64,000 nucleotides of DNA from Candidatus Latescibacterota bacterium (GTDB taxonomy: Bacteria > Latescibacterota > UBA2968 > UBA8231): the NCBI GenBank assembly GCA_965204725.1, contig OZ242005.1, positions 4,032,001-4,096,000 on the forward strand, written 5' to 3'. Under the pieces are notes generated by a model. The model had not been told where the DNA came from. It saw nothing but the letters and a program-made list of their open reading frames with translations, and made no database searches. The translations under genes were made by a program, and so were the position numbers. Shown in pieces: positions 13,326 through 39,222 of the stretch. Each line of letters begins with the position of its first letter. Position 1 is the first letter of the stretch.

Positions 13326-14963
13326 CTAAGGCTCGCGCACGGTTAGGACCTGATTGGCCGACACCTCGTGCAGCGTCTGGACCGTGCCGCTGGGCCAGTG
13401 GAGGACGACGCTATCGACGACCGCGGCGGCGCCCAAACCAAAGTGGACCTTGAGATCGCTGTGGGAGAGGAAGCTGGTGCCGCTACGCACCTCGGCGGTC
13501 TGGTGCTGGCCCGCAACGCTTATCTCGATCCGGGTGCCGATTCCATCGCGGTTGCTGCGGGTGCCTACGGTGGCGATTTGCAAGTAGTTGCCGTCGTTGC
13601 CGCCGTCGTTGCGGAGGAGATTGGGCGTGCTGTTGAGGTTTAAGACGAACAGGTCTATATCGCCGTCGCGGTCGTAGTCGGCAAAGCTGGCCCCGCGGCT
13701 CACCTTGACTAAGGCCAAGCCCGGTCCGCCGCGGGCAGAAACCTCGGCAAAGGTGCCGTCGCCCAAGTTTTGGTAGAGGAAGTTGGGCGCGGCGTACCTG
13801 CTGTTGGTATGGGGCAAGTCGGCTTGAGGATAGGTGTGGCCATTGGCCGCAAAGAGGTCTTGGTCGCCGTCGTTGTCAAAGTCGAAGAACCCTGTGCCCC
13901 ATCCCACCTCGGGAATGCCCCGCGCCGCAACGTGGGATACAAAGGATACGTCGAGAAAAAATGTGCCGCGCTGATTTTTGTAGAGGGTATTGTACTCGCC
14001 TTCAAAGTTGGTGACAAAGATATCGAAGTAGCCATCGTTGTCGTAATCGCCGACCGCAGCACCCATGCACCCCTGTTCGGTGCCGTCCCCGCTATAGGCC
14101 ACGCCCGCGCTGAGGCCCTCGTCCACAAAGGTTCCGTCGCCTTGATTCTGGTACAGATTGTTGGGGGCCGAGTCATTGGCGACGAAAACATCGGGCCAGC
14201 CATCGCGGTCGAAATCGCTAAAGACGACCCCGTACCCATAGTACTTCGCGCCGGCAATGCCGGCTTCCTCGCTGCGGTCAGCCAAGGTGCCGTTGCCGCG
14301 GTTGTGGTAGAATACATCGCCGGCGGGCCGCAAACCGCGCGGGCCGCAAAAAATATCGACCGTCTTCCATACGCAGGGAACGGTAGAAGAATAGTCCCGC
14401 GAAAAGTCGATATAATTGGCTACGTACAGATCGACATAACCGTCTAAATCGGCATCGCCGAAAGCGCAGCCCACGCCCCAGCGGTCGTCCCCGACGCCCG
14501 CTTTTTCTGTAACATCCTCAAAAGTGCCATCGCCCTGATTCTGGTAGAAGGTATTGCGGCCGAAGTTGGTCACGTACAGATCCAGATCGCCATCGTTGTC
14601 GTAGTCCGCAGCGGCACAACCCATGGACCAACTCGTGTCGCCGACCCCCGCGGCCGCAGTCACATCGACAAAGCGATCGCCGAGGTTGCGGTAGAGGTGG
14701 TTGGTTGGCTCTTGGCCCGGTGGAAATCCCTCAAAGCGGGAGCCGTTGGCGACGTATAGATCGACATCGCCATCGCTGTCGTAGTCGAAAAAGGCCGTGC
14801 CTCCCACAGCAGTTTCAACGATGTATTCTTGGGTGCTACCCGAGACGTTCCGGGCCGTGATGCCGAGTGCGGCGGCTTGGTCGGTGAACTGAGCCGGCAG
14901 GGGTTGGGCTGCTAGGAGGGCCGGACCGAGGAGGATGAAGGCCCCGCTTACTAGCGCGTACAT
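13326..14963 (-). CDS. CRTAC1 / FG-GAP / ASPIC-UnbV family protein
   Basis: Signal peptide, DYDNDGDLDL repeats, SNRDGIG..SFLSHSD..VHFGLG. Confidence 0.88.
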   Translation of the reverse strand: MYALVSGAFILLGPALLAAQPLPAQFTDQAAALGITARNVSGSTQEYIVETAVGGTAFFDYDSDGDVDLYVANGSRFEGFPPGQEPTNHLYRNLGDRFVDVTAAAGVGDTSWSMGCAAADYDNDGDLDLYVTNFGRNTFYQNQGDGTFEDVTEKAGVGDDRWGVGCAFGDADLDGYVDLYVANYIDFSRDYSSTVPCVWKTVDIFCGPRGLRPAGDVFYHNRGNGTLADRSEEAGIAGAKYYGYGVVFSDFDRDGWPDVFVANDSAPNNLYQNQGDGTFVDEGLSAGVAYSGDGTEQGCMGAAVGDYDNDGYFDIFVTNFEGEYNTLYKNQRGTFFLDVSFVSHVAARGIPEVGWGTGFFDFDNDGDQDLFAANGHTYPQADLPHTNSRYAAPNFLYQNLGDGTFAEVSARGGPGLALVKVSRGASFADYDRDGDIDLFVLNLNSTPNLLRNDGGNDGNYLQIATVGTRSNRDGIGTRIEISVAGQHQTAEVRSGTSFLSHSDLKVHFGLGAAAVVDSVVLHWPSGTVQTLHEVSANQVLTVREP

Positions 14964-15003
14964 CGCTTTTGCTGCGACACCAAAGACGAGGGCAGGGAGA
15001 CCG

Positions 15004-16695
15004 TCATAACCTAGAGAGCGGAAGTTTTTCTGAAAAAAACTGTAGATCGAAAAAGTTCAAGGACCCATCGTCCACCTCAACGGTGGGTTGCCGAGCACCC
15101 CCGCGATTCTGGGTGACAAAAAGATAGGACTTGTACCCCTCGTCTGAAAGGCGTTGCAACAGGCTCTCGTAGTGTCTGGGGGTGGCGACGTAAAAGAAGG
15201 GCCTTTGGTAAAATTCGCCGCACAGGGCGTGGGGAACCCAGCGCAGGTTGGTGATGACGACCTCTTCGCTGCGCTGGCTCATCTCGCTATGGAGACGCTG
15301 GGAAAAGGCCTTCTTTTTGGCAAGAAGCGAAACTCCATACACTTGGGCGGCCAAGCTAAACGCCAGCACAGCACCCACCGCGAGGACGCCGGCACTAAAG
15401 TAGGGCCGCTGGCGTTTTAGCCACTCCAGCAAGTTTCCGGCGGCTAAGACCGCCCAGAGCGGATAGAGAATCAGAAAGTAGCGGTTGCCCCAGTGGATAC
15501 CGAGGGAACCCACTTTGGGTGCGGCCAAGGCGTAGAGGGCGGCAAAGCTCAAGGCGACTAGCCAAATCCAACGTCTAAGAGGATGGAGGTCGGAATCAGC
15601 GGAACGCAAGAAGGCCAAGGCGACAAAGGGGGCCGAGGCAAAGAGGGCATTGGACGATTTGAGCATGTAGTCAATGGGGCTGGCGGCGAAGAAATAGCCC
15701 CCGAGGGATAAACCGGCACTGATCAGGGCCACCGCACTGTACGCGGGCACGGCCTTTTGCAAAGCCAAGCGCGGGCTGAGTACAAAGGCGAGGATGAACG
15801 GCAGCGCGAGGACGAGGGACAGTGCGGGAATCGGGTTGGACGCTGCGAAGAGGTTGTAAAACACCCGGGGCCGCGCCGCGAGATGATCGACCCAATCGGC
15901 CACAGTGGCTAGGTGCGTACTCAAATGGTAGCCCAAGGGATGGCCGATGGTCAGCCACTGGAACAGCCAGAGGGGCAGCAGGGAAGCGAAGAGGATCAGG
16001 GCCGACGAGACGAGGATTTTTAGTCTGTCGGCGCGGGCATAAAAGGCGATGGCTAGGGCCAGCACGAGGCAAAGCAAATAGAACTCGTCTCTGAAATAGA
16101 CCGATAGTCCGGCCGCGGCCATGCCCAAGCCTAGGTGCTTGGGGGCGGAGTCGGCGAGAAACTGCACCAGATAGCGCACACTCCAAATCCCCAAGCAAAT
16201 CGCCGGGGTGTGCTCCCAGAAGACGAGGCTGTAGAAGAATACCGGCGTGCAAAGCCCGGCCGTGAGAACCGCGACGTGCCCGACCGCAATTCGATGGCCT
16301 ACCAAACGCGCCAGTTGGGCCAAGCCGGCCAGCATGGCCAGCGCGGAGAGCACCGGCACCAGATAAAGCCCCCAGTGACCTAAATGGACGAAGAAAAGGG
16401 CCGAGATAAAAGCAAAGACCGGCGAGAAAACCGAATAGAGTGTGCCGGACTCAACCCGCGTGAAATAGTAAGGCAGAGGATTGTAAGCGAAGTCTGGATC
16501 GACAATCTGCCCCGGCCAAGGGATGGAAAAGTCTGTGTAGCCGCTGTTCGCTAAGGCTTGGACTTGAAGGAATTTGTTGGCGTTATCCGTAATCCAAAAG
16601 CCGCGTTTTTCGAGGACGCAGAGGGCGGCTCCATAGCAGACTGAAACGGCGAGTAGGGAGCACAGAACCGATCGGCCGGGATGGAATCGGCGCAA
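15004..16695 (-). CDS. Polytopic membrane protein, putative GT-C-fold glycosyltransferase
   Basis: TM1 followed by an acidic loop (ITDNANKFLQ), FYSLVFWEH, FRDE, WGNRY, about 13 TM helices. Confidence 0.55.
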   Translation of the reverse strand: MRRFHPGRSVLCSLLAVSVCYGAALCVLEKRGFWITDNANKFLQVQALANSGYTDFSIPWPGQIVDPDFAYNPLPYYFTRVESGTLYSVFSPVFAFISALFFVHLGHWGLYLVPVLSALAMLAGLAQLARLVGHRIAVGHVAVLTAGLCTPVFFYSLVFWEHTPAICLGIWSVRYLVQFLADSAPKHLGLGMAAAGLSVYFRDEFYLLCLVLALAIAFYARADRLKILVSSALILFASLLPLWLFQWLTIGHPLGYHLSTHLATVADWVDHLAARPRVFYNLFAASNPIPALSLVLALPFILAFVLSPRLALQKAVPAYSAVALISAGLSLGGYFFAASPIDYMLKSSNALFASAPFVALAFLRSADSDLHPLRRWIWLVALSFAALYALAAPKVGSLGIHWGNRYFLILYPLWAVLAAGNLLEWLKRQRPYFSAGVLAVGAVLAFSLAAQVYGVSLLAKKKAFSQRLHSEMSQRSEEVVITNLRWVPHALCGEFYQRPFFYVATPRHYESLLQRLSDEGYKSYLFVTQNRGGARQPTVEVDDGSLNFFDLQFFSEKLPLSRL

Positions 16696-16728
16696 GAGGA
16701 CGACCTTATGTGGAAGGAAGAAGGGCGT

Positions 16729-19422: not shown

Positions 19423-19447
19423 AAATCTAAAACCATAGCTCGTAGGG

Positions 19448-21373: not shown

Positions 21374-21391
21374 CTACTAATCCAACCCGTA

Positions 21392-21429
21392 AATAAAAGA
21401 AGGGGAGGAATGGAATTCCCCCCCTTCTT
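21392..21429 (-). terminator. Intrinsic terminator downstream of the TWG-tail gene
   Basis: Minus strand AAGAAGGGGGGGAAT-TCC-ATTCCTCCCCTTCTTTTATTT. Confidence 0.7.
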
Positions 21430-21457: not shown

Positions 21458-22378
21458 TTATTTGCCGAATGAAGCCTTGATCTGGCCCCAAGTGTTGTCT
21501 TCGACGGATGTCGGCGCGACCCCTTCAAAGGCAGACTCGTCAACGGGCAAAAGCACCCAGTCGGCCAAGAAATCGGCGTCGCCGAAGGATTCGACATTGG
21601 GACTGATGGCCCAGCGCGAATGGCAGTTGCAGTCGTCGGACAACTCGGCATCGGTATCAAAGACATGCCCGGCTAGGCCGATGATCTCGTCCTGCTCGAA
21701 GTCGTGGGCGATGCTCCCTTGGGGGTCTTCCCAGTTGAAATCGTCCCAATAGACGCTCCACCATTCGGCCCGTTGGCGCATCTCCTCAAAGGAATTGGGC
21801 GCGGTGCCACTAAACCAATACGCATGATCGGAGTAGGGCGGCGTGTCGTACCAGTCGGCTTGGGTCATCCAAAACCAGTGCCATTGTCCCTCGCGGGCTT
21901 GGCCGTTGTCGAACCAATAGTGGCTGATTTGGGCATGGCGACCGCGCTGGCGCGCCTTCTCCTCGTCGGTCTGGCCTTCTAAATCCCAGAACGAGCCGCC
22001 CGAGTGATCCGCATCTACGGCCGTTTCGACCGATTCGTTGCCCAACTGGTACTTGTCGTCGAAGCGCTCGTAGGCCCAATAGATGCGGTTGGTTTCCTCG
22101 TTCCAAGTGGGAATCCAGCGGAAGGAAATCGAGGACACGTCTAGATCGCCGGTGTAGATCCAAGGCCGAGCCGTGCTCTGGACGACGCTCTGCTCGGTGA
22201 TCCAAAATTCCTCGGGAATGATGTCCCATTCGCTCAGATCGGCATCTAAGACCGGAAGGTGCGTCTCGGGCCACTGCCACACCGCGCCGATAAAATCGGG
22301 CGGGTCGTGGGCTTGGCCCCGGGTGCTCAGGCCGAGCAAAAGCACGGGGACCAATAAGGCGGATAAAACTTTATGCAA
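21458..22378 (-). CDS. Secreted CBM9/DOMON-like protein with C-terminal TWGQIK tail
   Basis: AGGAGG 6 nt before TTG 22378; signal peptide ending GQA; LDADLSEW, DADHSGG; ends PTSVEDNTWGQIKASFGK. Confidence 0.7.
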   Translation of the reverse strand: MHKVLSALLVPVLLLGLSTRGQAHDPPDFIGAVWQWPETHLPVLDADLSEWDIIPEEFWITEQSVVQSTARPWIYTGDLDVSSISFRWIPTWNEETNRIYWAYERFDDKYQLGNESVETAVDADHSGGSFWDLEGQTDEEKARQRGRHAQISHYWFDNGQAREGQWHWFWMTQADWYDTPPYSDHAYWFSGTAPNSFEEMRQRAEWWSVYWDDFNWEDPQGSIAHDFEQDEIIGLAGHVFDTDAELSDDCNCHSRWAISPNVESFGDADFLADWVLLPVDESAFEGVAPTSVEDNTWGQIKASFGK

Positions 22379-22476
22379 AGCGAACCTCCTTTTTAGAGGT
22401 GTGAGGTTGGTTTTGAAAGCTAAGTGCGATGGCCTCTGCTGTACTAACAAAAATATAGTATGCGGTCAAGCAAAAA

Positions 22477-25338
22477 CTACTTCAAGCCGGCGATGATTGA
22501 CAGAAAACTCAAGCCCGAAGTCTCGATCTCGCGGCGTCGCCCAACAACCTCCAGCGAGCGGCGGTCGAGGCGGATACCCACCTGAGTGGTTAGATCATAG
22601 CCTAGGTATTGGCTGGTATTGGTGAGTTGCAACGCCAAAACCGAGCCGCGAAAATCCCCGGTGAAAAGCCCCGCCGCCAGTTCACTTTCTCCTCCTTCGA
22701 GGTCGAAGAAAGTGCGCTGCTCCAAGCCAAACTCAAACTCGGTGGTCTCAAGCACTGGTACGCTACCCACAAAGAAAAAGAGGCCGTCCCAAGAGCGCCG
22801 CGGGTCGAATGCGCGGCTAAAGGGCACCTCGCGTAGGAATTCGCTCTTGAGTTTGGGCCTGAAACTCAGCGACCGCCAGTAAAAAACATATTCTATCTTA
22901 TTGATCAGCCCGACAAAGCCCGAGGTCTGCCGCCCGTCGCGCAAAAATTCTACCTCGCTGTCGCGCTGCCGCCAAGTCTCCCATTTGAAGCGATGCAGGG
23001 TCCGCCACAAACGCGGGCTGGCGTATTCCCAATCGGCGTAAAAAGTGTTGATCCAAGTGTCCGCCGCGGCCAAGGGGTCCAATACCGGCACATTGCTGCC
23101 GGCCGACTCGGCCGGCGCGCCGAATCGGCTCCTAGGGATGACCCATTGCACCAAGTGGTCGGCGATCTCGTCTGCGGCCCTCTTAATCATGTTGAAAATC
23201 CTCAGACGGCCCCACTGCGACCCGCTCTGCTGCCAGAGGAGCATTCCATAGCTCGTCAGGTTGCGGCGGTCGCTCGCCAAGCGGATTTGCCGCAACTGCC
23301 CCACCCTTAGCTCGATACCCGGCGCCACCTCAAGCCCGCCGAAGACGTTATAGCCCCAGTGGTCTCGCTTGTAGGGATAGTCCGGCTCTTGGTCGTTCTC
23401 AAAACGCTCCACCCACCCATTGTTGTTGAGATCAATGCCGAAGAGAAATTCGGGGCGATCGGCGGCATAGCGCAAAAAAGGCTCGTCGTAGTCGGGGAAA
23501 AAATTCACCCGATCGACCGTGCTATTCTGATTGAAATCCGATATGAAGTCGCGGTTCTCGTCGTACCCGGGGAAAACCGCTGGATCGGCCACGCCGCGGA
23601 CCTCGATTGCACTGCGGCGCTCGGTGGGGACAAAGCTGCCCTCGCCCACCCGCAGCCAGTCGGGCTGCCGGTCGTTGTCGTCGTTGTCATCGACAAACTC
23701 GTAGTGCAAGTTGACGGCCTCGGGGGCATAGTCGGACACTCCGTCTCGATTGACCGTCAGGACGCTGGTGCGATACCCGTCTTCCATACCAAACCCCTCG
23801 CCCATAAAACGCAAAGGCCCCTCCCGGAAGGCCAAGTTGACCAACCAGCCTACTTCGTGGCGATCCCCGGCGATGCCGTTGATCGCACGGTGGGAATCGC
23901 GCCCGATGCTGGGGTATTTCCGGTACTGGGTGTTGAGGTTTATTTCGCCGTAAAAATCAAAGCCGTGAAAATCCCGTATCTCGGCCGTCAGCCCGACGAT
24001 CTGGTTGGCTGTCGGCAGCCCGTAATCGAAGACGACCTCGCGTTGGTTCAGTTGGTTTTTGATATTGCCCTCGGCCCGCGCCGCAGGTAAAAATTGCGGT
24101 ACGCCAAATTCGTCGGTCTGCCGATTGGAACTGACCTCGACTCGATAGTCGTTGGCGAGCACGAGGCGGAAACGCACGTCGCGAATGGCACTAATCGCGG
24201 CTTCGGCCTCCGCTAGGGTGAGATCTAAGTGTTGCTGGAAGAGCGCCCGCAGCGTTCCCGCTTCCCCGGTCGTCTCCCTAGGGGCCAAGGGATATTGCAA
24301 AATGATCTGGTCCGCGCCATCGGCCGTTAGAAACCCCCGGTCTCGTCTCCCCCCTTCAATGGTCGGTCTAAAACCAATGCTACTGCTGAGGATGACGGTG
24401 TCTCGCTCCACCTCCACGAGCTGGTCCCGAAGCATCTCCTGACGGCTCAGGGTCGTGCGGATCTCGATCTCCTCGCTGACCAACACCGCACCGCCTTCGC
24501 CGTCTTCTGGCGAGTCGTCCGAGAGCCGCACCAAGAGCAGGTCAACCCGCTGGGCCAACTGCCCCGCCGTCAGAGCCCCCTTGAACACGTTCCCTTGAAA
24601 GCTCTCGTTGCTGCCGGTGTTGTTGTGGCTGTTGACGAAGTTCATCCCCAATGTGAAAGAATCGGTCAGATCGGCTTCGACCCGGCCGGCGGTGAGATTG
24701 GTCGCGTACTGGAAGCGCGCAGTGCCCCCCGACAGGAGCGGAAACGAAATCCGCGAAAAAAGCCCGGTGGCGCGAAAGCGGTCGGCCGCAAAGTCGGCCA
24801 CGACCCCGTTGAACCCGGCCTTGCGGAAGGTCATCGGCGTGAGGGTGGTCCATATCTCGTCGCCGACCATGACCGAATAGCGGTACTGGCCCTTGGTGTC
24901 CCCGGATATAACCAAGCGGCTAAACCAGTTGTTGTACTGGGCACCTTTTCTAACGGAGGAACTCTCGGCGATGAGGGGTTTGGTCTGACGCCAGTCGTAC
25001 ACCAGCCAGCCCCGCGTAATGAGGCGACCAAAGGGATCGTAGAAGAGCGCCCCCTCGGACGAGGGGTCGATATAGCGCTTGTGGGCTTGGCGGGCGTAGT
25101 TGGTGTACTCCCACTGATTGCGGCCAAATTCGCCAAAGAGGGGGGCCGGCATGTACCAGCGCTGCACGGTCGGGTCCAACGCCTCCATATAGGTCGGTAC
25201 GCCGGGCACGTAGTAAATGACGCGATCGCCGACCCGATCCCCCAGACGGCCTCCATAGTCAACTTGCGCAGTGGCTGCCTCCCACAGACCCAACCCGACC
25301 AGAGCAGCCAATGTGATGTACCGCGCCCTCATCCCCAT
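22477..25338 (-). CDS. Large secreted hypothetical protein, putative outer-membrane barrel (paralogue B)
   Basis: Signal peptide; long shared blocks with 25338-28121; acidic DxN loops; amphipathic strands at the C-terminus. Confidence 0.7.
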   Translation of the reverse strand: MGMRARYITLAALVGLGLWEAATAQVDYGGRLGDRVGDRVIYYVPGVPTYMEALDPTVQRWYMPAPLFGEFGRNQWEYTNYARQAHKRYIDPSSEGALFYDPFGRLITRGWLVYDWRQTKPLIAESSSVRKGAQYNNWFSRLVISGDTKGQYRYSVMVGDEIWTTLTPMTFRKAGFNGVVADFAADRFRATGLFSRISFPLLSGGTARFQYATNLTAGRVEADLTDSFTLGMNFVNSHNNTGSNESFQGNVFKGALTAGQLAQRVDLLLVRLSDDSPEDGEGGAVLVSEEIEIRTTLSRQEMLRDQLVEVERDTVILSSSIGFRPTIEGGRRDRGFLTADGADQIILQYPLAPRETTGEAGTLRALFQQHLDLTLAEAEAAISAIRDVRFRLVLANDYRVEVSSNRQTDEFGVPQFLPAARAEGNIKNQLNQREVVFDYGLPTANQIVGLTAEIRDFHGFDFYGEINLNTQYRKYPSIGRDSHRAINGIAGDRHEVGWLVNLAFREGPLRFMGEGFGMEDGYRTSVLTVNRDGVSDYAPEAVNLHYEFVDDNDDNDRQPDWLRVGEGSFVPTERRSAIEVRGVADPAVFPGYDENRDFISDFNQNSTVDRVNFFPDYDEPFLRYAADRPEFLFGIDLNNNGWVERFENDQEPDYPYKRDHWGYNVFGGLEVAPGIELRVGQLRQIRLASDRRNLTSYGMLLWQQSGSQWGRLRIFNMIKRAADEIADHLVQWVIPRSRFGAPAESAGSNVPVLDPLAAADTWINTFYADWEYASPRLWRTLHRFKWETWRQRDSEVEFLRDGRQTSGFVGLINKIEYVFYWRSLSFRPKLKSEFLREVPFSRAFDPRRSWDGLFFFVGSVPVLETTEFEFGLEQRTFFDLEGGESELAAGLFTGDFRGSVLALQLTNTSQYLGYDLTTQVGIRLDRRSLEVVGRRREIETSGLSFLSIIAGLK

Positions 25339-28121
25339 TACAATCCGGCATAAATGGTGATAAAGCTAGTCGTCTCGGTCCGGCCTTGGGTGCGTTTGCC
25401 AAAGACCCGGGGTTCTACCTCGCGCACCGCCTCGGTGAAGGTGCGGCCGAGGCGTAGGCCGAGTTGCGTCGTCAGCTTGTATCCCAAATAGTTCGAGTTG
25501 TTGGTTAGCTGCACCGCAAAAACCGCAGAGCGCAAATCTCCGGTCTCTTCGGCCACGCCCTGCGCGACCATATCCTCCTCTTGCTGGACCAGATCGTTGA
25601 ACTGGGCCAACTCGATCCCTAAGTCAATCGCGCTGCTGTTGAGTAGGGGCACTTGGGCCAAAAGCGAGACAATTCCAGTCCATTGCTTTAGGTCTTCTTC
25701 GGCCAGCACAAAGGCGTCTTGACGGAAGTACTCGCTTTTGAGCCTCGGCTGGAGGATAAAGTGCCCTAGGTGCAGCTTGTACTCGAATTTGTTGATCAAA
25801 CCCAAGAGGGAGGGCGAGCGGGCCAGTATCCGGCCGTTGATGTCGCGGGCCTCGTCTTGGGCTTGGTTGTAGTGCTCGTATTTGAGTTTGTTGACGATCT
25901 CAAAATTGGCAATCGCTGTGTAGTCTAACCCCAGCCACGCGGTGTTGATCCACGTGTCGGGAAAGGCGAGGATATCCGCCACCAGCGGCGGTGTGGGCGC
26001 GTCGAGGAAGGCCAGCGGCGCCCGCCGAGCGTCGGGGATGGTGTCCGCGACCCGCTTGAGCCTATCGAAGACCCGCACCCGCCCCAACCCGGGATAGTCC
26101 TTGTCAAGGGTGAACATGGCGTACGCGATTTGGTTGTCGCGGTCGTCCGAGAGCATGCGCTCGTCGAGCCGCCCCACCAGCAAGCGCGCCTCGGGCCAGA
26201 GGTGAACGCCAAAAAAGACGTTGTACCCGCGCCTATCGGGCTTATAGGGATAGTCGGCCAACTCGTCATCCTCAAAGCGGTCGATCCAGCCGTTGTTGTT
26301 GAGGTCGATGCCAAAGAGGAATTCGGGCCGATCGACGTGATAGCGCAAAAACGGCTCTTCGTAGTCGGGAATGGAGTTGGGCACGGAGCGGTTGTCGTTT
26401 TGGTTGAAGTCGGAAATGAAGTCGAGGTTTTCGTCCCAGCCGGGAAACACCTCCCGGTCATTCGACTGCGAGCCGACCCGCGCCCAGTCGGGCTGGCGGT
26501 CTTGGTCGTCGTTGTCCGCGACAAATTCGTACACCGAGCGTATGGGGTCGTCGTAGAAAACATCCCCTTCGGGCCGGGAGACAAAAGCCGAGGTCGAATA
26601 GTCGGCATCCACCGAATAGGCTTCGCCATAAGCAAAAAACGGATAGGCTTCTTTGGACAGGTTGAAGATGGTGGCCTGGCCGCTCTCCGCAGACACCTCG
26701 TGCCCTTCGTTGGCATTGAACAGGGCGGCATTGGGGTACTGAAAATAGCGCAGGTTGTTGTTCCATTCGCCGTAGAAATCAAAGCCCCACACGTTCTTGC
26801 CTTCAATGGTGAATCCGGCGACCATGTTGGCCGAGGGCAAGCCGTAGTTAAAAAGAACCCGCTGGGCGTTGGATATATCCTTTATATTGCCGTCGGCCCG
26901 CCGTATGGCGATGAGCACTGGCTCGGCTTCTTCAATGACTTGGTTGGTCAGCGGCGGCGGCGGCACCGGGCGCGTACCCGTTTGCAGATTGGACCACATT
27001 TCGACCTTGAAGTCGTTGGCGAGCACATAGTCGAACTCCACCTCGACTAGGGTGGTTAAATCCGGCCCTATATACGCCGGGTCCGTAAAGTCGTAATTGA
27101 GGATGATCCGCTCGCTGCCGTCGGCGGCCAAAAAGCCCGTGCGCTGAAAGCCGCCAAACACAGTAGGCCACTCCGCCCCCTCGCGCACCACCTCGTCCAA
27201 CGTCAAGACGGTCTCTAGACCCGTTTCAAAATCGCGGCTCTTGATGCGTATGTCGTGGCTGAAAAGGGCCGCACCGCCCGCTTCGTCTGCGGGGCTGTCG
27301 TCGCTGAGGACGATGGCTATCGCCGTAACCGGCGTGCTGGTCTGGCCCGAGGTGAGGTTCCCCGCGAGGAGATTGCCTTCAAACATGTCCAAGGCGGTAT
27401 TGGCGTTGTGGGCGTTGACCACGGTCCCGCCCACCGTAATAAAGTCGCCCACCTGAGCGAGTGCCCGGCCCCCGAACAGGGAGGTCGAGTTGGATTGCCG
27501 TCTAGGGTTGATGGTCACCCCTACGGCCGGGTCGTTGATGCGCGAGGCCAGCACGGTGGCGGCGTATTTGTCCGCGGCGAAGTCGATCTGGACGCCGTTG
27601 AAGTTCGGCTTGGAAAAGGTCATCGGCGTCAGGGTGGTGCGTATCGCATTGCCCACGGTAATGGCGTAGGAATACTGGCCCTTTGAGTCGCCGCTTACGG
27701 TCACCGAACTGAAGAATTGCTCGAATTGGCGGCCCTTGAAGATGCCGCTGCCCAGCTCTTGGGGCTGGTCTTGACGCCAGTCGTACACCAGCCAGCCGCG
27801 GTTGATGTAGTTGCCAAAAAAGTCGTAGAAGTAGTCGCCCTCTAGGTTGGTGTTGATATAGCGCTGATACTGGTCGCGGGCGTAGTTGGAGTACTTCCAT
27901 TGACGCCACTTGAACTCGTAGTACAGCTCTTGGGGAACGTACCACTTCTGGACGGCCGGATCGAGCGCTCCAAAGAGGACGCCTGGGCCTCGGGGCTCAA
28001 AGCTGACTTGGCCGCCGCGCTGAATCCCTAGGCGAGTGCCGTAGTCTTGGGCGTGGAGTACGGTTTGGGACGCGACCAACAGCGCTAGCCCAATCGTTAA
28101 ATTCGCTCCGCGGACATTCAA
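25338..28121 (-). CDS. Large secreted hypothetical protein, putative outer-membrane barrel (paralogue A)
   Basis: Signal peptide; TAATG coupling to the next gene; RGWLVYDWRQ, TTLTPMTF, DFISDFNQN, DRPEFLFGIDLNNNGW shared with paralogue B. Confidence 0.7.
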   Translation of the reverse strand: MNVRGANLTIGLALLVASQTVLHAQDYGTRLGIQRGGQVSFEPRGPGVLFGALDPAVQKWYVPQELYYEFKWRQWKYSNYARDQYQRYINTNLEGDYFYDFFGNYINRGWLVYDWRQDQPQELGSGIFKGRQFEQFFSSVTVSGDSKGQYSYAITVGNAIRTTLTPMTFSKPNFNGVQIDFAADKYAATVLASRINDPAVGVTINPRRQSNSTSLFGGRALAQVGDFITVGGTVVNAHNANTALDMFEGNLLAGNLTSGQTSTPVTAIAIVLSDDSPADEAGGAALFSHDIRIKSRDFETGLETVLTLDEVVREGAEWPTVFGGFQRTGFLAADGSERIILNYDFTDPAYIGPDLTTLVEVEFDYVLANDFKVEMWSNLQTGTRPVPPPPLTNQVIEEAEPVLIAIRRADGNIKDISNAQRVLFNYGLPSANMVAGFTIEGKNVWGFDFYGEWNNNLRYFQYPNAALFNANEGHEVSAESGQATIFNLSKEAYPFFAYGEAYSVDADYSTSAFVSRPEGDVFYDDPIRSVYEFVADNDDQDRQPDWARVGSQSNDREVFPGWDENLDFISDFNQNDNRSVPNSIPDYEEPFLRYHVDRPEFLFGIDLNNNGWIDRFEDDELADYPYKPDRRGYNVFFGVHLWPEARLLVGRLDERMLSDDRDNQIAYAMFTLDKDYPGLGRVRVFDRLKRVADTIPDARRAPLAFLDAPTPPLVADILAFPDTWINTAWLGLDYTAIANFEIVNKLKYEHYNQAQDEARDINGRILARSPSLLGLINKFEYKLHLGHFILQPRLKSEYFRQDAFVLAEEDLKQWTGIVSLLAQVPLLNSSAIDLGIELAQFNDLVQQEEDMVAQGVAEETGDLRSAVFAVQLTNNSNYLGYKLTTQLGLRLGRTFTEAVREVEPRVFGKRTQGRTETTSFITIYAGL

Positions 28122-28184
28122 TGCCGCACCCTCCCAATTCTGCGTGATAAAAGTTCATGGCGCGGGAATTCCCCGCGCCTAGCA

Positions 28185-30419
28185 TCAATACGCGACCCCG
28201 ACAATCCCCAACCGCTTTTCCTCGCCGGTCCCCGCATCCAACGCAACAGAAAAGATATAGTGCCCCGGCGGGACTGCGTCGTCCGCATCGTCGCGCCCGT
28301 CCCAAAAGCGGGGGAATCGACCGCTCATATCCAAGCCTTCGTACAGGGTGCGGACCAACCGGCCACTCAAATCGTAGATCCGGAGCCGCACCCGGGTTGG
28401 GTGGGCGATATTGGTTATATCGTAGGTAATGGCCGTGCGCTCGTTGGCCCCGTCGCCATTGGGGGTAAAAACGCCGGGGACGGCCGCCACATTCACGAGC
28501 AGCTCGTCGGTGATCGGCACGTTGACAAAGAGGTTTTCTGGATCGAGAGTGCCCACGGCTCGGCGATCGGGATCATCCAGACCCTCCCGACTCAAATCCG
28601 CTGCATTACCCGCCAACACTACTTGACCCAGCACTGCGTTGTCGGCGTTGAGTGCCCGGCCGGCAAAGCGAGTCCCCAAGCGCAGGACCGTATTCTCAAA
28701 TTCTAAGGTCAAAAGAGCTCCATCCTCCGCAATCCGCTCAAAGGCCATGACAAAGCCGTCGTCGCGCACTGCCACCACGCTAAAACCGTTTTGCTCGACC
28801 GGGAGAGCCGCGAGGGACGAGCCGGAAAAATCCGCCGCTTCTGCCGTGCCATCGGGCCGGCGTATTTCCACTCGGCCAATCGACGCGGTGCGCAGCGGGG
28901 TGCTGATTTCAAAGCGGTCAAAGCCCGCGTTCTGGGCCGTGGATTTGACCAAGACGCTGTAGGTGAAGCGGGTGGCTTGGCCCAAAATGGCGGTGCGGGG
29001 CAGAATCTCGGCGATGAGGGAGTCGGCAAATACCGGCCGGAAAACATCCCAAGCCACCCCGCCGATGCCAGTCGCGGCATCGACCTCCGCGTTGAAGAAT
29101 TCGAGCATGACTTGAAAATAGCGCCGCGGGCTAGGCGACACGATCAGCGCTCCCGCTCCTTGGACCTGAAGTTGGTCTGGGGCGACAATACCCTCGGGCG
29201 AATAGGGGGGCGACCACGGGCTCCAGTTGGTTAGGTCGTCGCGAATCACCGATTTTTGGCCGCTCGCCAGCTTGTTGTAAGCCGCCTCGTCGAGGGTGAT
29301 CTGGGACCGCTGTGCAAAAGGCAACTGACCAAACGTCAAAAGTGCCTCGCGCCCGTCCATCTCTTCGTTGTCGAGGACATTGGCGATCAGACTTTTGAGT
29401 TCGCTGTCTTCTACGTCTTCGGCTCGCTGCCAAGGCGCGTTGATGGGGATGTCGAAAACCGTATCGCCCCGCTGTTCAACCCGGCCCGAGGATTGCTTGC
29501 CGACCCGAGTGAACTCGACCGGCTGGGGATCATCCCCACTGCGGGTGCGGACCAGCACCCTAGAGCGAGTTGGATCGCCCACCTGCTCTTCGAGCCAGCG
29601 CAAGCGGCCCAAAAGCGCTTGGTCGCCAAAATCGAATACATTGGAAATGTACACGGCCTGCGGCACAAACCCCTCGCTAAACACTTGGAACTCGGCGATC
29701 TCAAAATCTGCGGCCGTCAGGGACTTGAGCCGCAAAAAGCGCACGAAGCGAGTGGGAATTCGCACATCCACCACCGCTTCTTGGTTTTGCCCCTCAAAGG
29801 CGACCGTTTCCCAGATTAGACTGCCCTCGCGGCGCGATTCGGGTCGGCCATCGTTGACGAAAATTTCGTAGCCCTTCAAAAAGTCGTCTTGGGACTGGAA
29901 ATCCGGGGCCGGAAAGGCCGGGTCGGCATTGCGGGGGAAAAATTTGAACCGATTGACGCCAAAGATGGCCCCCAAGTCGAACTCGATGAGGAGGCCAAAG
30001 GCCCCGGTGCCCCCGGTGCCCGAGGATTTCACTGCCAAGGCGGTATTGCCGTCGTCGTCGAACATCTGGGGAAAGTCGGCTTCGAGAAACCGAAAGGAGG
30101 GGATGGGCGTAAGGACGCTGCCCCCGCGTTCCTTAGAATTGACGCCGATCAATATGTTGTCCGTGGTATCGGCCTGCTGCGGAAAGATCCATTGGGCGCG
30201 GTCAACGGGCGCAAAGTCAATGACGCCGCCGGGCGTATTGGACTGATCAACGGTCGCCGGGTCGAGGATGACGAGCGCTGGAATCGCCCCACCGCCACTC
30301 TCCCAAGACAACCCCCCCTCGCCCCCTAGCTGGACGACCTCCAGTTCGGCGTCAACAGGTACACTCAATGCTCCGAGCACTGAGAACAGGATAAGCACCC
30401 TATGGATCATGGTTGGCAT
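28185..30419 (-). CDS. Secreted protein with discoidin-like N-region and FlgD-Ig / T9SS type-B-like CTD (paralogue 2)
   Basis: Signal peptide; FDLG, EIAEFQVFSEGF, SPSPRRYFQ; C-terminus FTPNGDGANE..YDLSGRLVRTL..WDGRD..PPGHY..VAY. Confidence 0.75.
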   Translation of the reverse strand: MPTMIHRVLILFSVLGALSVPVDAELEVVQLGGEGGLSWESGGGAIPALVILDPATVDQSNTPGGVIDFAPVDRAQWIFPQQADTTDNILIGVNSKERGGSVLTPIPSFRFLEADFPQMFDDDGNTALAVKSSGTGGTGAFGLLIEFDLGAIFGVNRFKFFPRNADPAFPAPDFQSQDDFLKGYEIFVNDGRPESRREGSLIWETVAFEGQNQEAVVDVRIPTRFVRFLRLKSLTAADFEIAEFQVFSEGFVPQAVYISNVFDFGDQALLGRLRWLEEQVGDPTRSRVLVRTRSGDDPQPVEFTRVGKQSSGRVEQRGDTVFDIPINAPWQRAEDVEDSELKSLIANVLDNEEMDGREALLTFGQLPFAQRSQITLDEAAYNKLASGQKSVIRDDLTNWSPWSPPYSPEGIVAPDQLQVQGAGALIVSPSPRRYFQVMLEFFNAEVDAATGIGGVAWDVFRPVFADSLIAEILPRTAILGQATRFTYSVLVKSTAQNAGFDRFEISTPLRTASIGRVEIRRPDGTAEAADFSGSSLAALPVEQNGFSVVAVRDDGFVMAFERIAEDGALLTLEFENTVLRLGTRFAGRALNADNAVLGQVVLAGNAADLSREGLDDPDRRAVGTLDPENLFVNVPITDELLVNVAAVPGVFTPNGDGANERTAITYDITNIAHPTRVRLRIYDLSGRLVRTLYEGLDMSGRFPRFWDGRDDADDAVPPGHYIFSVALDAGTGEEKRLGIVGVAY

Positions 30420-30836: not shown

Positions 30837-30849
30837 AGAAAGGCGATCC

Positions 30850-32352
30850 ATGGCCCGCTTTCACCGCCCCGGCCCTTGGCTGGGGGCCGCCCTTTGTCTC
30901 CTCCTCTGTACCTGTAGCCCCAAGGAGCGCAACTCCTTGGTCCGCGCCGGGATGTACGCCTTTGCTCAGGAGCGCTACAGCGAAGCCATCGTCGCCTTTC
31001 ACCAAGCGCTGGCCTCCCACGCCGACGATTACGAGGTCCACCACTATCTCGCCCGTTCTTACCTAGCGCTGGGCAAATTCCCCCAAGCCCTGCGGGCGAT
31101 CGAACACGCGATTGAACTCGCGCCGCAAGAAAACCAGACGCGGGCCGAGTTGTACGAAATTCTCGGCATCGTCCACACGGCCCGCTACACCTCCAGAGCG
31201 TATAGCCCCAACCAGCACCGCGATGTCCAAGCAGCGCGGGCCGCCTTTGAGCAATCGACCGCGCTCGACCCCCACCGCGCAACCGCGTACTACAACTTGG
31301 GCTTACTACACGGCTATCGCCAAGAAGTAGAGCAGGCCCAAGCCGCGTACACGGCGGCCTTGGCGGCCGATTCCACCTTGGCGCCAGCGCACAAGAAATT
31401 GGGCAAAATTCACCGGGAAAAGGGGTTCCCGTCCGCCGCGGCCCGCGCCTTCAAAAAAGCGGTGCGCTTCGACCCGCAAGACGCCGAAGCGCACTTTCTC
31501 TTGGGACTGGCCCAGCGCGACATCGGCGATAACGAGGCGGCTTTGGCGGCCCTCCTCAAGGCCACCGAGCTCAACCCCGACTCGCCCAAGCTCCGCCTCA
31601 ACCTCGGCAACGTCTATCTCCGCCTAGGCCGCGGCGAAGAGGGCAAGCGGGAAATGGCGCGCTCGGAAAGCCTGCGCCAGCAGCATCGGGGCCTACACTC
31701 GGAAATCTCCCGGCCAGCGCATCAATCGCTCCCCATTGGCTCGGCGCGGGATCACTACAACATGGGGTTGAAGCACCGGATGGCCGGCGAAATCGAGCAG
31801 GCTTTGTTGGAGTTTCGGCGCACGGTCGAAATCAAACCCGATCACAAAGACGCCCACATCGGCCTCGGCCTCCTCCTCGCCGAGCAAGGCCGGCAAAAAC
31901 AGGCGGCCCGGTATTTCCAGCGGGCCATTGAGTTGGAGCCAGAAAATCCCGTCCTGTACGTGCATCTGGGCAATGCTCACTATCAGGCGGGCTTCCTCGA
32001 AGGGGCGGCCCAAACCTTTGCCACGGCGAGCCAACTCGACACCTCCTTGGTCGAGCCTCCTTATATGCTCGGGTTGATCGCCGCCGAGCAGCACCAATTC
32101 AAAGCAGCCGCACGATTTTTTGCCCGCGCCACCAGCCTCGCCCCCCAATACGCCAAAGCTCACTTCAACTTAGGGGTAGCCCATGCCCAGCTCGGGGACT
32201 TTGCCGCGGCCCGCAGTGCGTACCAACGCTTTGTCGAGCTGGAGCCCGAAGATGGGCGCGGCCACCTCTACTTAGGCGATGCCTGCGAAGCACTCGGGCT
32301 GCTCGCAGAGAGTCAAAAGCATCGAGCGCGCGGTCAGCAGCTTTTGGAATGA
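30850..32352 (+). CDS. TPR repeat lipoprotein
   Basis: LLLCTC signal; TPR units (AYYNLG, AHFLLG, AHFNLG). Confidence 0.85.
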   Translation: MARFHRPGPWLGAALCLLLCTCSPKERNSLVRAGMYAFAQERYSEAIVAFHQALASHADDYEVHHYLARSYLALGKFPQALRAIEHAIELAPQENQTRAELYEILGIVHTARYTSRAYSPNQHRDVQAARAAFEQSTALDPHRATAYYNLGLLHGYRQEVEQAQAAYTAALAADSTLAPAHKKLGKIHREKGFPSAAARAFKKAVRFDPQDAEAHFLLGLAQRDIGDNEAALAALLKATELNPDSPKLRLNLGNVYLRLGRGEEGKREMARSESLRQQHRGLHSEISRPAHQSLPIGSARDHYNMGLKHRMAGEIEQALLEFRRTVEIKPDHKDAHIGLGLLLAEQGRQKQAARYFQRAIELEPENPVLYVHLGNAHYQAGFLEGAAQTFATASQLDTSLVEPPYMLGLIAAEQHQFKAAARFFARATSLAPQYAKAHFNLGVAHAQLGDFAAARSAYQRFVELEPEDGRGHLYLGDACEALGLLAESQKHRARGQQLLE

Positions 32353-32375
32353 GACGAGCGCTAATTAATAGATAG

Positions 32376-32483
32376 GTACACGACACCTGCTTTAAGTACG
32401 CCTTTTCTGCTGCTCCCGCTGCGTCCGGGATCGAGGGCGTCCCGCCCTCGATCTTTGGAAGGCTGACCGCTGGTGTCGTGTAG
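32376..32483 (-). mobile_element. MITE family A, internally deleted copy with a single hairpin
   Basis: TAG|GTACACGACAC...GTGTCGTGTAG|TAG, 3-bp target duplication. Confidence 0.78.
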
Positions 32484-32537
32484 TAGCCAGTCTTGAGCTG
32501 GTCCGCCCCCTACCGCGAATACGAACAATCAGACGTA

Positions 32538-36557: not shown

Positions 36558-36633
36558 CCGACCCTTCTTGAAACGCGCCACCGGCTACGTTGTCTATCGC
36601 GGAGTTCGGTTTGTAAAACGCTAGCACCATTGG

Positions 36634-39222
36634 TTAATAGGCCACGACTAGGGTGCGGACCAACTCTTCCCGACCTAGCTCCGCACCCGACGTATTGGCG
36701 TCCAGCCGCAGATGAATTGCGTACACCCCCGGCGGCACGAGCGTTCCCTCTTCGGTCTTTCCGTTCCATCCCATTTCGTACACCCCCGAGGCAAAATCTC
36801 GCTGCTCGGCCAGTTGGCGCACCCAGCGTCCCGCCAAATCGTAGATGGTTGCTTCAACCCGCTGACTGCCTTCCACCAACACCACTGAAAAGCGCAACGC
36901 CACCTCGTCGTTGACCCCATCCCCATTCGGCGTCAACACCGCTGGCTCGATCACTAAATCCGCAAAAACCGAGCGCTGTTGCGGCTGCCCCACCACCAAC
37001 AGCCGATTGCGGCCGACGGCCTCCACCGCTTCCCCGCGATCGACGCGCTGCCAGATCCCCTCCCCATCTTCTCCTTGGCGCAGTTGCACCTTTAGCGGCC
37101 CCCCCCGGGAAAACAGACGCCCCGCAAAGTCTATCCGCAGCACCGCTACTTCGCTCTCCGGCCCCAACCGGGCGAAGGACAAATGCACTCGGTCGGCGGT
37201 AGCGGCCAGCACGGCCGCGGCCAACGGAGAAAAATGCTCCCCATCCGCGCTCCCCAACAACTCGTTATACGTCAGTTCCATGCCCGCCGGTGCTTCTAAC
37301 AACAACTCGTTGAACCCCCCATCCCCGGCGTCAAACTCAGGCCGCACATACACTGAAAAAGGCACCTCGGCCCCCAACCGATCCACCTGACTGGGCACGA
37401 CCTCGCCCAAGAGCCGCCGCGCCACCGGCTCGGCGAAGTGTAGCCGCAGCCCCGACAAACTCGCCGCTACATCCGGTGCGGCCGAGCGCAACGTCGCCCG
37501 CACCTTGAGAAACTCCCGCGGCGACGGCGAAGTGATCGGACTGCCTCCCGGATCGCTGTAGGGCGCACTCCACGGCTCCCAGTCTGCGCCAGCGACTTCC
37601 TCGGACACCACCTCGCCGCGAAAAATGCTCAACAGCTTGTTGTAAGCCGTTTCGGAGATTTCGGTTCCATCCTTTTTGAAGTAGTGCAAGATCTCGCCCA
37701 AGGTGTCGCCGGTGCGGGTCTGAAGCTGTACCTCGGTGCCGGGCGGCGTGTGAGCGTCCCACTCAAGGGCTACCAAGTTGCGGCTGCCCCCCAACCGGAT
37801 CAGGTCCGATTCGAGCTGCACCTCGGGCAAAAACCCCTCGCCAAAAAGTTGTATCTCGCTCAACCGGCTAGCACTCCGGTTGGGAAGGCGCACGTGTTCT
37901 ACTTCAAATACCAAGCGAAAAAAACGCCCCTTTACCGGGTCGAAGTCATTGCCATCCACGTTGAGGGCACCGGCGACGCTCCGCTTTACTTGCTCGCGCC
38001 GCATGGCCGTAGTCCACTTGAGGCCCCCATCTACTTCCCGCGAACCATCCGAAAACTCCAAGCGATAGTTCCCCAAGGCGTACTCCGTGAAACTCATGCG
38101 GTGGCTGTGGATCCAAAAGAACGAGCCTAAGTCGATGAACAACTCGTCCTCTAACCGATTCTCAATGTTGAATAGGGACAGCCCCTCTACGCTGGTCACG
38201 TCGCCGTCAATCATCAACTGGGGATTGATGCTCCCGGGCACCGTAGTAGAAATGGAGCCATTGCGCCGCAGGGCACCACTGGCCAAGTCGTCGCCTTGGG
38301 TCCACACTTCGAGCTCGGCCAACCGGGGCCGCTCGCGCCGAAAGTAGCGCACCGTCCCCTGCCGCTGGGGATCGAGAGCCTCGTACACGGCCCGTTTGAC
38401 CACGATCTCCCGCCCGTCCGCTTGCCGCTTGCTGTATTCGACGATTCCTCGGTCTTCAGCGGGCAGCTGGTCGTATTCCGCTGGGGATACTTCTCGGCCG
38501 CGACCAAAATCGCTGGCTTGGACGACAACTTGGACCAAGCGTCCCACGGCCCGGCGTTGGTCGAGCCCTATCGGGTCGAGCTCGACCTCAAAGGTGCGCT
38601 GGCTTTTGTTGGGCTTTAGCGTCTGGAGCACCGGAAAGAATTCGAGGCTCGACCCGCCAATGGCCTGTACAGGCTTCTGTCCATCCGACACTAGGACATC
38701 AAACAAGAGAAAGGGATCGCCCATGCCCTCCGCGACGAACTTTAACGCGATTTTGTTGATAAAGACAACGCGGCCCAAATCCACAGTAAACCACCACTGA
38801 GACGACAGATCTACATTCTCAGCAACCGGATCAGGCTCCCAGTACGTGGTCAAGTCGCCATCTAGGACTGCGACGACTCCGGCGCGGTTGGACCCGCCCT
38901 GAATGGCGTCGAGGAGAGCGATGTCTTCAGGCTCTTTCTTGGAGAGGTAATCTGGCGGGTTATAGCGCAGAAAATCAACGATATCCAGCGCGGCATTGGT
39001 GTTTTTGCGGACGCGATTGGGCCGCACCGCACCGAGCGAGGAAACCTCGATAGTACCGGGCGCAAATTCCCAGTGTTGCCAATGGTCGGGACCGACGACG
39101 ACTTGGTTCGCACGGCGGTCGAGCCGATGGCCTGCTTGAGCCAGCAAATCCTCGGCCCCATTGGACCAAAGCACTGCGCTGGCCACCACGAGACGCGAGA
39201 GGAGTTTCGGGCGGATATTCAT
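36634..39222 (-). CDS. Secreted protein with discoidin-like domains and FlgD-Ig / T9SS type-B-like CTD (paralogue 1)
   Basis: Likely start ATG 39222 (MNIRPKLL); DGDLTTYW, VDLG, SEIQLFGEGF, SPSPREF; C-terminus LTPNGDGVND..YDLAG..WNGK..PPGVY..VAY. Confidence 0.75.
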   Translation of the reverse strand: MNIRPKLLSRLVVASAVLWSNGAEDLLAQAGHRLDRRANQVVVGPDHWQHWEFAPGTIEVSSLGAVRPNRVRKNTNAALDIVDFLRYNPPDYLSKKEPEDIALLDAIQGGSNRAGVVAVLDGDLTTYWEPDPVAENVDLSSQWWFTVDLGRVVFINKIALKFVAEGMGDPFLLFDVLVSDGQKPVQAIGGSSLEFFPVLQTLKPNKSQRTFEVELDPIGLDQRRAVGRLVQVVVQASDFGRGREVSPAEYDQLPAEDRGIVEYSKRQADGREIVVKRAVYEALDPQRQGTVRYFRRERPRLAELEVWTQGDDLASGALRRNGSISTTVPGSINPQLMIDGDVTSVEGLSLFNIENRLEDELFIDLGSFFWIHSHRMSFTEYALGNYRLEFSDGSREVDGGLKWTTAMRREQVKRSVAGALNVDGNDFDPVKGRFFRLVFEVEHVRLPNRSASRLSEIQLFGEGFLPEVQLESDLIRLGGSRNLVALEWDAHTPPGTEVQLQTRTGDTLGEILHYFKKDGTEISETAYNKLLSIFRGEVVSEEVAGADWEPWSAPYSDPGGSPITSPSPREFLKVRATLRSAAPDVAASLSGLRLHFAEPVARRLLGEVVPSQVDRLGAEVPFSVYVRPEFDAGDGGFNELLLEAPAGMELTYNELLGSADGEHFSPLAAAVLAATADRVHLSFARLGPESEVAVLRIDFAGRLFSRGGPLKVQLRQGEDGEGIWQRVDRGEAVEAVGRNRLLVVGQPQQRSVFADLVIEPAVLTPNGDGVNDEVALRFSVVLVEGSQRVEATIYDLAGRWVRQLAEQRDFASGVYEMGWNGKTEEGTLVPPGVYAIHLRLDANTSGAELGREELVRTLVVAY

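Follow-up and report, generated by a model that had tools for sequence, protein, structure and literature searches.

We analysed a 64,000-nucleotide stretch of DNA (the window) from a 5.43-Mb Latescibacterota genome (two contigs, 94% complete) and describe here a locus at positions 13326-39222 of this window, in which two giant predicted outer-membrane beta-barrels of 927 and 953 aa (BIG-927 and BIG-953) are encoded among three secreted proteins with PNGDG-bearing C-terminal domains (CTDs), named D1, D2 and D3. A first reading of the letters alone, hereafter the original prediction, had described a co-oriented surface-assembly locus linked to type IX secretion (T9SS), and its genes, their order and their strands were confirmed by the list of open reading frames (ORFs) and by domain scans: all genes lie on the minus strand except one TPR gene, and the order of transcription is D1, two GT-C-like proteins of the glycosyltransferase (GT) type, the divergent TPR gene, D2, BIG-927, BIG-953, a protein named TWG after its C-terminal tag, D3, a two-PpiC foldase, an L-domain protein, a 563-aa GT and an FG-GAP/ASPIC protein (Table 1). 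D2 is the first gene of a 17-kb co-oriented run and lies directly upstream of BIG-927, whose gene overlaps that of BIG-953 as TAATG, the two being translationally coupled. The TPNGDG.ND C-terminal domains that had been reported are indeed there, as all three CTDs carry TPNGDGxN, and a PorP-sized gene is as absent as had been stated, since no PorP-type match was found within the window. A DUF6785/DUF6784 gene lies just beyond the start of the locus and is a recurrent companion of such gene sets, which we call cassettes. Signal peptides were assessed by eye from the translations, without a predictor.

Table 1. Genes of the locus and the adjoining DUF6785 gene, with positions in the window and the main matches of their products
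Feature	Positions	Strand	Evidence
DUF6785/DUF6784 polytopic membrane protein	10985-13168	+	Pfam DUF6785 443 bits, DUF6784 93.6 bits; true start probably later
FG-GAP/ASPIC (CRTAC1-like) secreted protein, 545 aa	13326-14963	-	FG-GAP_3 193 bits, UnbV_ASPIC 79 bits
Polytopic putative GT, 563 aa	15004-16695	-	NF047440 LA_3751/3752 family 190.8 bits, cut-off 200
Receptor L-domain (leucine-rich-repeat-like) protein, probable lipoprotein, 338 aa	16729-17745	-	Recep_L_domain 44 bits
Two-PpiC periplasmic foldase, 558 aa	17746-19422	-	Rotamase_2 72.4 bits (2 stretches), Rotamase 58 bits
D3, discoidin-type secreted protein with PNGDG CTD, 641 aa	19448-21373	-	CHU_C 26.6, FlgD_ig 23.1 bits
TWG protein, 330 aa, ends TWGQIKASFGK	21458-22450	-	CBM9 fold by AlphaFold2 model and Foldseek
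BIG-953, giant predicted outer-membrane beta-barrel, 953 aa	22477-25338	-	AlphaFold2 model
BIG-927, paralogous giant barrel, 927 aa	25338-28121	-	40% identity to BIG-953
D2, discoidin-type secreted protein with PNGDG CTD, 744 aa	28185-30419	-	FlgD_ig 33.8, CHU_C 33.0, TIGR04131 22.7 bits
TPR protein, probable lipoprotein, divergently transcribed	30850-32352	+	TPR_2 182 bits, many other TPR families
GT-C-like polytopic protein, 679 aa	32664-34703	-	653 bits to the 576-aa protein; without Pfam match
GT-C-like polytopic protein, 576 aa	34851-36581	-	PMT 24.3 bits (gathering 22.7), marginal
D1, 862 aa from signal-peptide start, F5/8 type C head and PNGDG CTD	36634-39222	-	F5_F8_type_C 33.1, FlgD_ig 29.8, CHU_C 26.8 bits

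The model obtained for BIG-953 with AlphaFold2 on 48 sequences (predicted local distance difference test, pLDDT, 68.7) is a very large beta-barrel with strands from residue 141 to residue 952, numbering about 26-30 when counted from DSSP strands. Two conserved parts were modelled with low confidence: the N-terminal 115 residues and an insert at residues 543-655 with invariant Asp/Asn in EF-hand-like (calcium-loop) runs. Foldseek searches against the PDB returned generic barrels only (E 2e-8 to 1e-4, template-modelling (TM) score about 0.2), with ushers, FhaC/TamA, LptD, SlpA and SprA as structural neighbours, and VIA-align on Foldseek's top chains gave Z scores of 10-14 at root-mean-square deviations of 5-10 A, no family being prominent. 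The FimD/PapC ushers, LptD, MtrB, Deinococcus SlpA and SprA thus share the overall large-barrel fold in a generic way only, without a sequence match in the PDB, and the plug domain that ushers carry between strands resembles the internal insert of the cassette barrel. Searches by sequence gave no Pfam family among 48 members of the barrel family (E<=1), no NCBIfam match for the 927- and 953-aa proteins (E<=0.01), no PDB match for a 38-row barrel profile and, with a stored homologue, 30 Atlas clusters that were all unnamed; a DUF6029 lead from the Atlas (0.89) was below the level to be trusted. The barrels are therefore a family without Pfam or PDB relative, which has more than 560 cluster representatives in a protein search. 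Where homologues of the 953-aa protein carry a name, they are annotated as hypothetical and come from Latescibacterota metagenome-assembled genomes (MAGs). Two candidate identities were rejected on these grounds, membership of the PorP/SprF family (TIGR03519) by the lack of any NCBIfam match or of any Pfam family in the 48 members, and a TonB-dependent receptor of the SusC kind by the absence of plug and TonB-dependent barrel families from the same 48. Plug domains were found in 20 other ORFs of the genome, compared with 38 giant barrels, and a genome-wide search for SusD gave no match.

The three D proteins are related to each other, D3 being paralogous to D2 over head and tail and D1 aligning to D2 over residues 362-744 and over the head, while the heads of D2 and D3 align with each other and with the second head of D1. 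The F5_F8_type_C match of D1 lies above the gathering score of 28.2 bits, D2 and D3 have none at E<=0.01, and the D2 profile matches FlgD Ig domains of the PDB only, with its tail. When we searched the genome with an iterated model of the three D tails, 186 CTD ORFs were collected, and these fall into two classes. The 101 D-family tails, with the consensus FTPNGDGVND...VAY and PNGDG itself in 83, all prefer the model of their own class, and 81 of their genes lie within 15 kb of a barrel gene. The other 85 tails, which include that of PorU, have the consensus NYPNPFN...LLK and never PNGDG; 84 prefer their own class model, and only 11, a background level, are encoded within 15 kb of a barrel. 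Type-A model TIGR04183 reaches its cut-off on one of these 85 tails (23.6 versus 23 bits) and does not match D1-D3 at E<=0.01. The genome thus holds two classes of tails with opposite linkage to the barrels. That PNGDG might be the general T9SS tail of the phylum was ruled out by the 85 tails that do without it, and that the barrel might be the partner of any CTD protein was ruled out by the background distance of non-D CTD genes from barrels.

All 20,136 ORFs of at least 80 aa were translated and searched with the locus proteins by phmmer. The giant-barrel family has 38 paralogues at 26 loci (27 under a looser grouping), and the core cassette genes amount to 352.5 kb, or 6.5% of the genome, so that the locus is not a one-off module but one of 26 copies. 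A typical locus has one or two giant barrels, two to four D proteins of the three subfamilies and usually a TWG protein and a two-PpiC foldase, with TPR and FG-GAP/ASPIC genes often present as well. Against a baseline of 16.2% of the genome within 15 kb of a barrel gene, this distance held 25 of 27 foldases, 17 of 19 TWG proteins and, in the phmmer census, 83 of 105 D proteins; the figures were lower for TPR proteins (24/35), FG-GAP/ASPIC proteins (24/44) and DUF6785 proteins (17/33, compared with 16% expected), and only 3 of the 60 best-labelled GT-C genes were near a barrel. The conserved core therefore consists of one or two barrels, D1/D2/D3, the CBM9-fold TWG protein and the two-parvulin foldase, and TPR, FG-GAP/ASPIC and DUF6785 membrane proteins are looser companions. 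Among the 46 ORFs lying inside cassettes, the 36 that were scanned comprise TPR proteins and unknowns besides transposase and restriction-modification genes that had been inserted; no glycoside hydrolase, polysaccharide lyase or peptidase was found in these 36, nor in 6 others, 4 being outside the scan, and no regulator was seen to recur in cassettes. The inserted genes, a TdeIII-type endonuclease with a methylase, a type I restriction-modification pair and an IS4/5 transposase, sit inside three cassettes (contig C1 417852-419575, 3864598-3865536 and 5043927-5047989), which suggests that cassettes tolerate, or attract, insertions.

The same neighbourhood was found outside this genome. Around 80 related barrels, taken with 10-kb flanks and in some cases cut by contig ends, a D gene of any subfamily was present at 78 loci (D3 at 71, D2 at 68, D1 at 57), TWG at 61 and the foldase at 60, followed by TPR (22), FG-GAP/ASPIC (19) and DUF6785 (10) genes. 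At all 68 loci with D2 this gene stands directly upstream of a barrel, and 67 complete pairs with a BIG-927-type barrel were found among these loci. Another 13 loci, from five genomes of other families, showed a D gene with the same tail flanking the barrel in 8 cases, TWG in 7, TPR in 9 and the foldase in 2. The co-orientation is far from chance, given that this gene set is repeated at 26 loci here and accompanies 78 of the 80 related barrels elsewhere. Of the original prediction, the large paralogues, foldase, TWG-tail protein and CTD proteins hold together as a conserved unit in the genome census, at the related loci and in other families.

The glycosyltransferases did not share in this conservation. 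The original prediction had placed them in a single lineage-specific platform for export, anchoring and glycosylation spanning the whole 26-kb run, an idea that draws on the co-orientation and tight spacing of the genes, on one other cassette in which a GT-C-like protein that also has TPR repeats is encoded (PMT_2 61 bits), and on the 563-aa GT, L-domain and FG-GAP genes being kept in the orthologous locus of sister species (8/80 loci). However, the family of the 679- and 576-aa proteins, in which 72 ORFs match at E<=1e-5, most of them at 580-980 bits, is laid out head-to-tail in three long tandem arrays away from cassettes (contig C1 at about 0.666-0.681, 1.456-1.502 and 1.992-2.036 Mb), and it is absent from all 80 related loci. 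In loci at least 90% identical to this one, the order is D2, barrel, barrel, TWG, D3, foldase, L-domain, GT, FG-GAP, DUF6785, the GT-C pair is missing and D1, where visible, abuts the TPR gene; because of this absence from orthologous loci, the GT-C pair is an insertion peculiar to this genome and stands outside the cassette. The platform is thus largely refuted for the GT-C pair. As for the 563-aa GT, it has a single copy in the genome, so that 25 other cassettes work without it, and the L-domain protein has 3 copies; both were met in 8 related loci, as close orthologues throughout, and are specific to this orthologous locus rather than part of the cassette. We consider it very unlikely that the whole run, glycosyltransferases included, acts as one platform.

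At the scale of the phylum, the giant barrel was present in 107 of 168 genomes, including all 75 other genomes of the window's family (f1), and was missing from all 56 genomes of three other families (f2-f4); a scan of reference genomes gave 632 confirmed barrel places. The D tail follows the barrel: the best E-values of its profile are 1e-20 to 1e-41 in f1 and 1e-24 to 1e-37 in f5, f6, f7, f9, f11, f12 and f13, with the exception of one 67%-complete f12 genome (1e-12), and drop to 1e-11 to 1e-14 in every genome of the barrel-free families f2-f4. A full-length D2 profile behaved in the same way. As kin are not independent, this pattern reflects only few evolutionary events. The cassette is lineage-wide and massively duplicated in Latescibacterota. 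Many contigs with a cassette sit in MAGs labelled Gemmatimonadota, a 'Planctomycetota' bin holds two more and a 'Rhizobiaceae' bin one, so that the cassette could help to recognise Latescibacterota contigs that were mislabelled or misbinned.

Two further members of the core are the TWG protein and the foldase. TWG homologues are about 305 aa long and have a Sec signal peptide without a lipobox, and the AlphaFold2 model of the TWG protein (pLDDT 86.7) has a CBM9/DOMON-type fold whose three highest-ranking Foldseek matches are CBM9 modules (1i82 with E 5.8e-8 and a TM score of 0.73 on the target, then 7nwo and 7nwn); matches of lower rank are the heme-binding NxrC, EbdC and CDH cytochrome (E 1e-3 to 1e-2). 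Pfam CBM9_1 is weakly matched by 7 of 51 TWG members (best E 7e-6), that of the window not among them. At least 90% of the 51 sequences conserve a His that comes first after the predicted cleavage site (residue 48 of the ORF), and the His of DADHSGG (residue 149 of the ORF) is equally conserved; together with the heme-binding members of the superfamily, these residues point to a possible metal or heme site. The family also has a conserved C-terminal tag, TSVExxSWGxIKASF, for which we found no NCBIfam or Pfam model. In all, 40 ORFs of the genome end in the pattern [ST]x[VI][EQD]xx[STGA]W[GA]x[IVL]K plus a few residues. Of these, 21 score at least 25 bits against the TWG protein of the window, while the rest include unrelated small proteins of 150-310 aa; the tag looks like a portable sorting or docking signal. 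We rejected it as a general marker of partners of CTD genes, because a CTD gene lies within 500 nt of 3 of 19 tagged non-TWG ORFs, compared with 193 of 2000 random ones. As for the foldase, it is of the parvulin type, SurA/PpiD/PrsA-like, with scores far below the cut-offs of all NCBIfam equivalogs, and thus falls outside the named orthologue groups.

SprA is encoded in one 2198-aa frame (611.9 bits summed, cut-off 200; contig C1 3034166-3039466) and PorU at 347348-350497 of the same contig (623.3 bits, cut-off 420), next to a PorV-like barrel that scores 150.5 bits, below its cut-off of 250. The only PorP-like genes of the genome are two weak ones (44 and 43 bits, cut-off 90.55), encoding proteins of about 330 aa elsewhere. 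Type-B cargo of Bacteroidota is reported to depend on cognate PorP/SprF barrels that are encoded alongside, and to stay bound to them (PMC9143113; PMC12618676). Because 101 cargoes with a distinct tail face only two weak PorP-like genes, and because the giant barrel adjoins these cargoes in genome after genome, we propose that the PNGDG tails probably, although with a good measure of doubt, have the giant barrels as their cognate partners in the outer membrane, these barrels taking the PorP/SprF role in a new family and displaying lectin complexes. According to this model, D1, D2 and D3, with their discoidin-like heads, Ig-like stalk and PNGDG CTD, would cross the inner membrane by Sec and the outer membrane via the genome's single T9SS (SprA, PorU and the PorV-like protein), which is encoded elsewhere. 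Their tails would then be handled unlike type-A tails, being received and held by the giant barrel or barrels of their own cassette, while the two-parvulin periplasmic chaperone of the cassette may assist the folding or insertion of either the barrel or the cargo, and the CBM9-fold TWG protein would join the complex through its conserved C-terminal tag. In this way each cell would display about 26 distinct lectin complexes on its surface for binding glycans or glycosylated surfaces, and the DUF6785 membrane protein linked to the cassette might take over captured material that has passed the barrel. We infer the physical docking of tail on barrel, the surface location, the client of the chaperone and the ligand.

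The proposed arrangement is reminiscent of the type-B systems of Bacteroidota, such as SprB-SprF and PG1035-PorP-PorE (PMC9143113; PMC12618676): a second CTD class with a PNGDG-type motif exists beside type A, cargo genes lie directly beside the gene of an outer-membrane barrel, a genome has many such cognate pairs, the cargoes resemble adhesins, and SprA and PorU are encoded elsewhere. It differs in that the cassette barrel, unlike PorP/SprF, has about 900-950 aa, about 26-30 strands and a calcium-loop insert, in that each cassette has three paralogous cargoes, a dedicated parvulin chaperone and a CBM9-fold protein, and in that the D tails score below the TIGR04131 cut-off in another phylum, Latescibacterota. 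The scale is different too, with 101 such cargoes here versus 12 type-B substrates in F. johnsoniae (PMC12618676). The logic of a type-B cargo with its cognate barrel is thus already known, while the barrel family, the composition of the cassette, its copy number and the phylum are new; our literature search found nothing that links Latescibacterota with type IX secretion or discoidin.

Several observations weigh against the barrels being partners of the D tails. Linked genes that duplicate together would give the same statistics without any binding. Compared with PorP/SprF, the barrel is three times as large and unrelated in sequence, a cassette has about three D proteins for one or two barrels rather than one tail for one barrel, 20 of the 101 D genes lie away from any barrel, and 26-30 strands with a conserved calcium-loop insert look more like a conduit than a mere anchor. 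The tails themselves do not reach the curated type-B cut-off: TIGR04131 (cut-off 35) gives 22.7 bits for D2, 18.2 for D1 and nothing for D3 at E<=0.01, and the D tails score about equally on FlgD_ig (Table 1) and on CHU_C (PF13585, gathering 27), which only D2 exceeds, D1 and D3 being just below. The FlgD_ig scores, too, are near gathering. The original prediction was supported in so far as the CTDs are a type-B-like subtype, distinct from the ordinary type-A tails of the genome. For other T9SS parts, GldK gave generic FGE-sulfatase matches only (at most 66 bits versus 350) in a search without positive control, and the TIGRFAM/Pfam models of GldL, GldM and GldM_1st gave no match in a search in which no control genome reached the cut-off. 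With SprA and PorU above cut-off and GldK, GldL and GldM undetected in these searches without positive control, the phylum may have a reduced T9SS, or its motor and ring may have diverged beyond detection. Co-folding of barrel residues 25-927 (38-row alignment) with D2 tail residues 650-744 gave an interaction score (ipSAE) of 0.00 in both runs, which, being without controls, carries no weight either way.

The conduit-like features of the barrel bring up a second explanation, in which the cassette is a capture and import system resembling polysaccharide utilization loci (PULs), an alternative that had already been raised in the original prediction. The barrel would be a TonB-independent counterpart of SusC that is fed by the D and TWG proteins, DUF6785 would carry the substrate across the inner membrane, and the many cassettes would stand for as many specificities. 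As with SusC/SusD PULs of Bacteroidota, there are dozens of paralogous loci that take a large share of the genome and are built round a large outer-membrane barrel and surface proteins with carbohydrate-binding-type domains, here the F5/8 type C head of D1 and the CBM9 fold of TWG. The enrichment of DUF6785 near barrels, the lack of SusD together with the excess of giant barrels over plug-domain receptors, and a barrel whose size and conserved insert suit a gated conduit fit import as well, and the flanks of cassettes repeatedly hold genes for sulfatases, GFO/IDH/MocA proteins, ABC permeases and solute-binding proteins. However, the cassette barrel is unlike SusC in having no plug or TonB-dependent receptor domain, the cassette surface proteins are T9SS cargo and not lipoproteins, and neither degradative enzymes (36 ORFs scanned) nor a recurring regulator lie inside cassettes. 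DUF6785, moreover, has no known function, no PDB relative and no literature mention that we could find, and was near only 10 of the 80 related loci. The lectin-type domains, the CBM9 fold and the linked inner-membrane protein therefore speak for the PUL-like alternative, the missing degradative enzymes and barrel plug against it, and we regard import as possible but rather unlikely. It overlaps with the proposal that the barrels hold the D tails, since the barrel could both hold lectins and conduct substrate. Combining the two, one may tentatively picture the barrel as a T9SS-coupled outer-membrane machine that docks three lectins by their PNGDG tails and TWG by its tag and is at the same time a TonB-independent gated conduit to DUF6785, in other words a SusCD analogue that arose independently in Latescibacterota with about 26 specificities per cell; we give this picture a minor share of our belief.

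A third explanation keeps the same architecture and changes the ligands, which would be host extracellular matrix or cell surfaces instead of nutrients, the cassettes being organelles for adhesion to hosts or particles. DNA near-identical to positions 21458-30419 was found in runs labelled as sponge metagenomes (two studies, 54-63% of the words sampled from the barrel region) and in marine metagenomes; no RNA run with near-identical DNA was found among the 24 runs listed. Adhesion would agree with these sponge runs, which stand beside marine metagenomes, and with the eukaryote-like domains of the cassette and its companions (discoidin, FG-GAP/ASPIC, receptor L-domain, TPR). Yet the cassette is spread over the phylum and occurs in MAGs titled from other settings, for example a deep lake, and is thus not specific to sponge symbionts, so that we hold adhesion to hosts or particles for unlikely.

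A single type of cassette occupies 6.5% of the DNA of a member of a widespread and uncultured phylum, and over half of the predicted T9SS cargo (101/186) belongs to it. If the giant barrels do receive the PNGDG tails, the rule that a type-B tail needs a cognate barrel would extend past Bacteroidota and past the PorP/SprF family, a large family of unannotated proteins of about 900 aa would be explained, and there would be a starting point for understanding the way in which polymers in sediments, water and sponges are bound, and perhaps taken up, by these bacteria. For annotation, FlgD_ig and CHU_C matches in this phylum should be taken with the warning that they mark a distinct sorting class.

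Some minor observations concern relatives and neighbours of the cassette. Contig C1 93000-110400 carries genes for two distant barrel relatives, 1036 and 1028 aa long (126-208 bits), together with an ExbB-type gene and genes for a TPR/YfiO-like protein of 1090 aa, a CTD protein with a type-A-like tail and a 318-aa protein that bears the tag; this may be a version of the system that is older or powered in a different way. At 2164624-2193734 of the same contig, another distant relative (892 aa, 210-227 bits, with no family in Pfam or NCBIfam) stands at the head of an array of about nine FG-GAP proteins of about 720 aa with type-A-like tails, one of which reaches TIGR04183. In the window itself, a 404-aa ORF without Pfam family (46434-47648, minus strand), about 18 kb from the cassette, weakly matches the PorV model (34.3 bits in a 420-aa frame) and may be a FadL/PorV-type barrel. 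Positions 8574-11252 of the plus strand encode a protein of 892 aa in which a spermine/spermidine-synthase domain was recognised (63 bits); it recurs near two other cassettes, and at one of these two it has a major-facilitator-like (MFS-like) N-terminus and TPR repeats.

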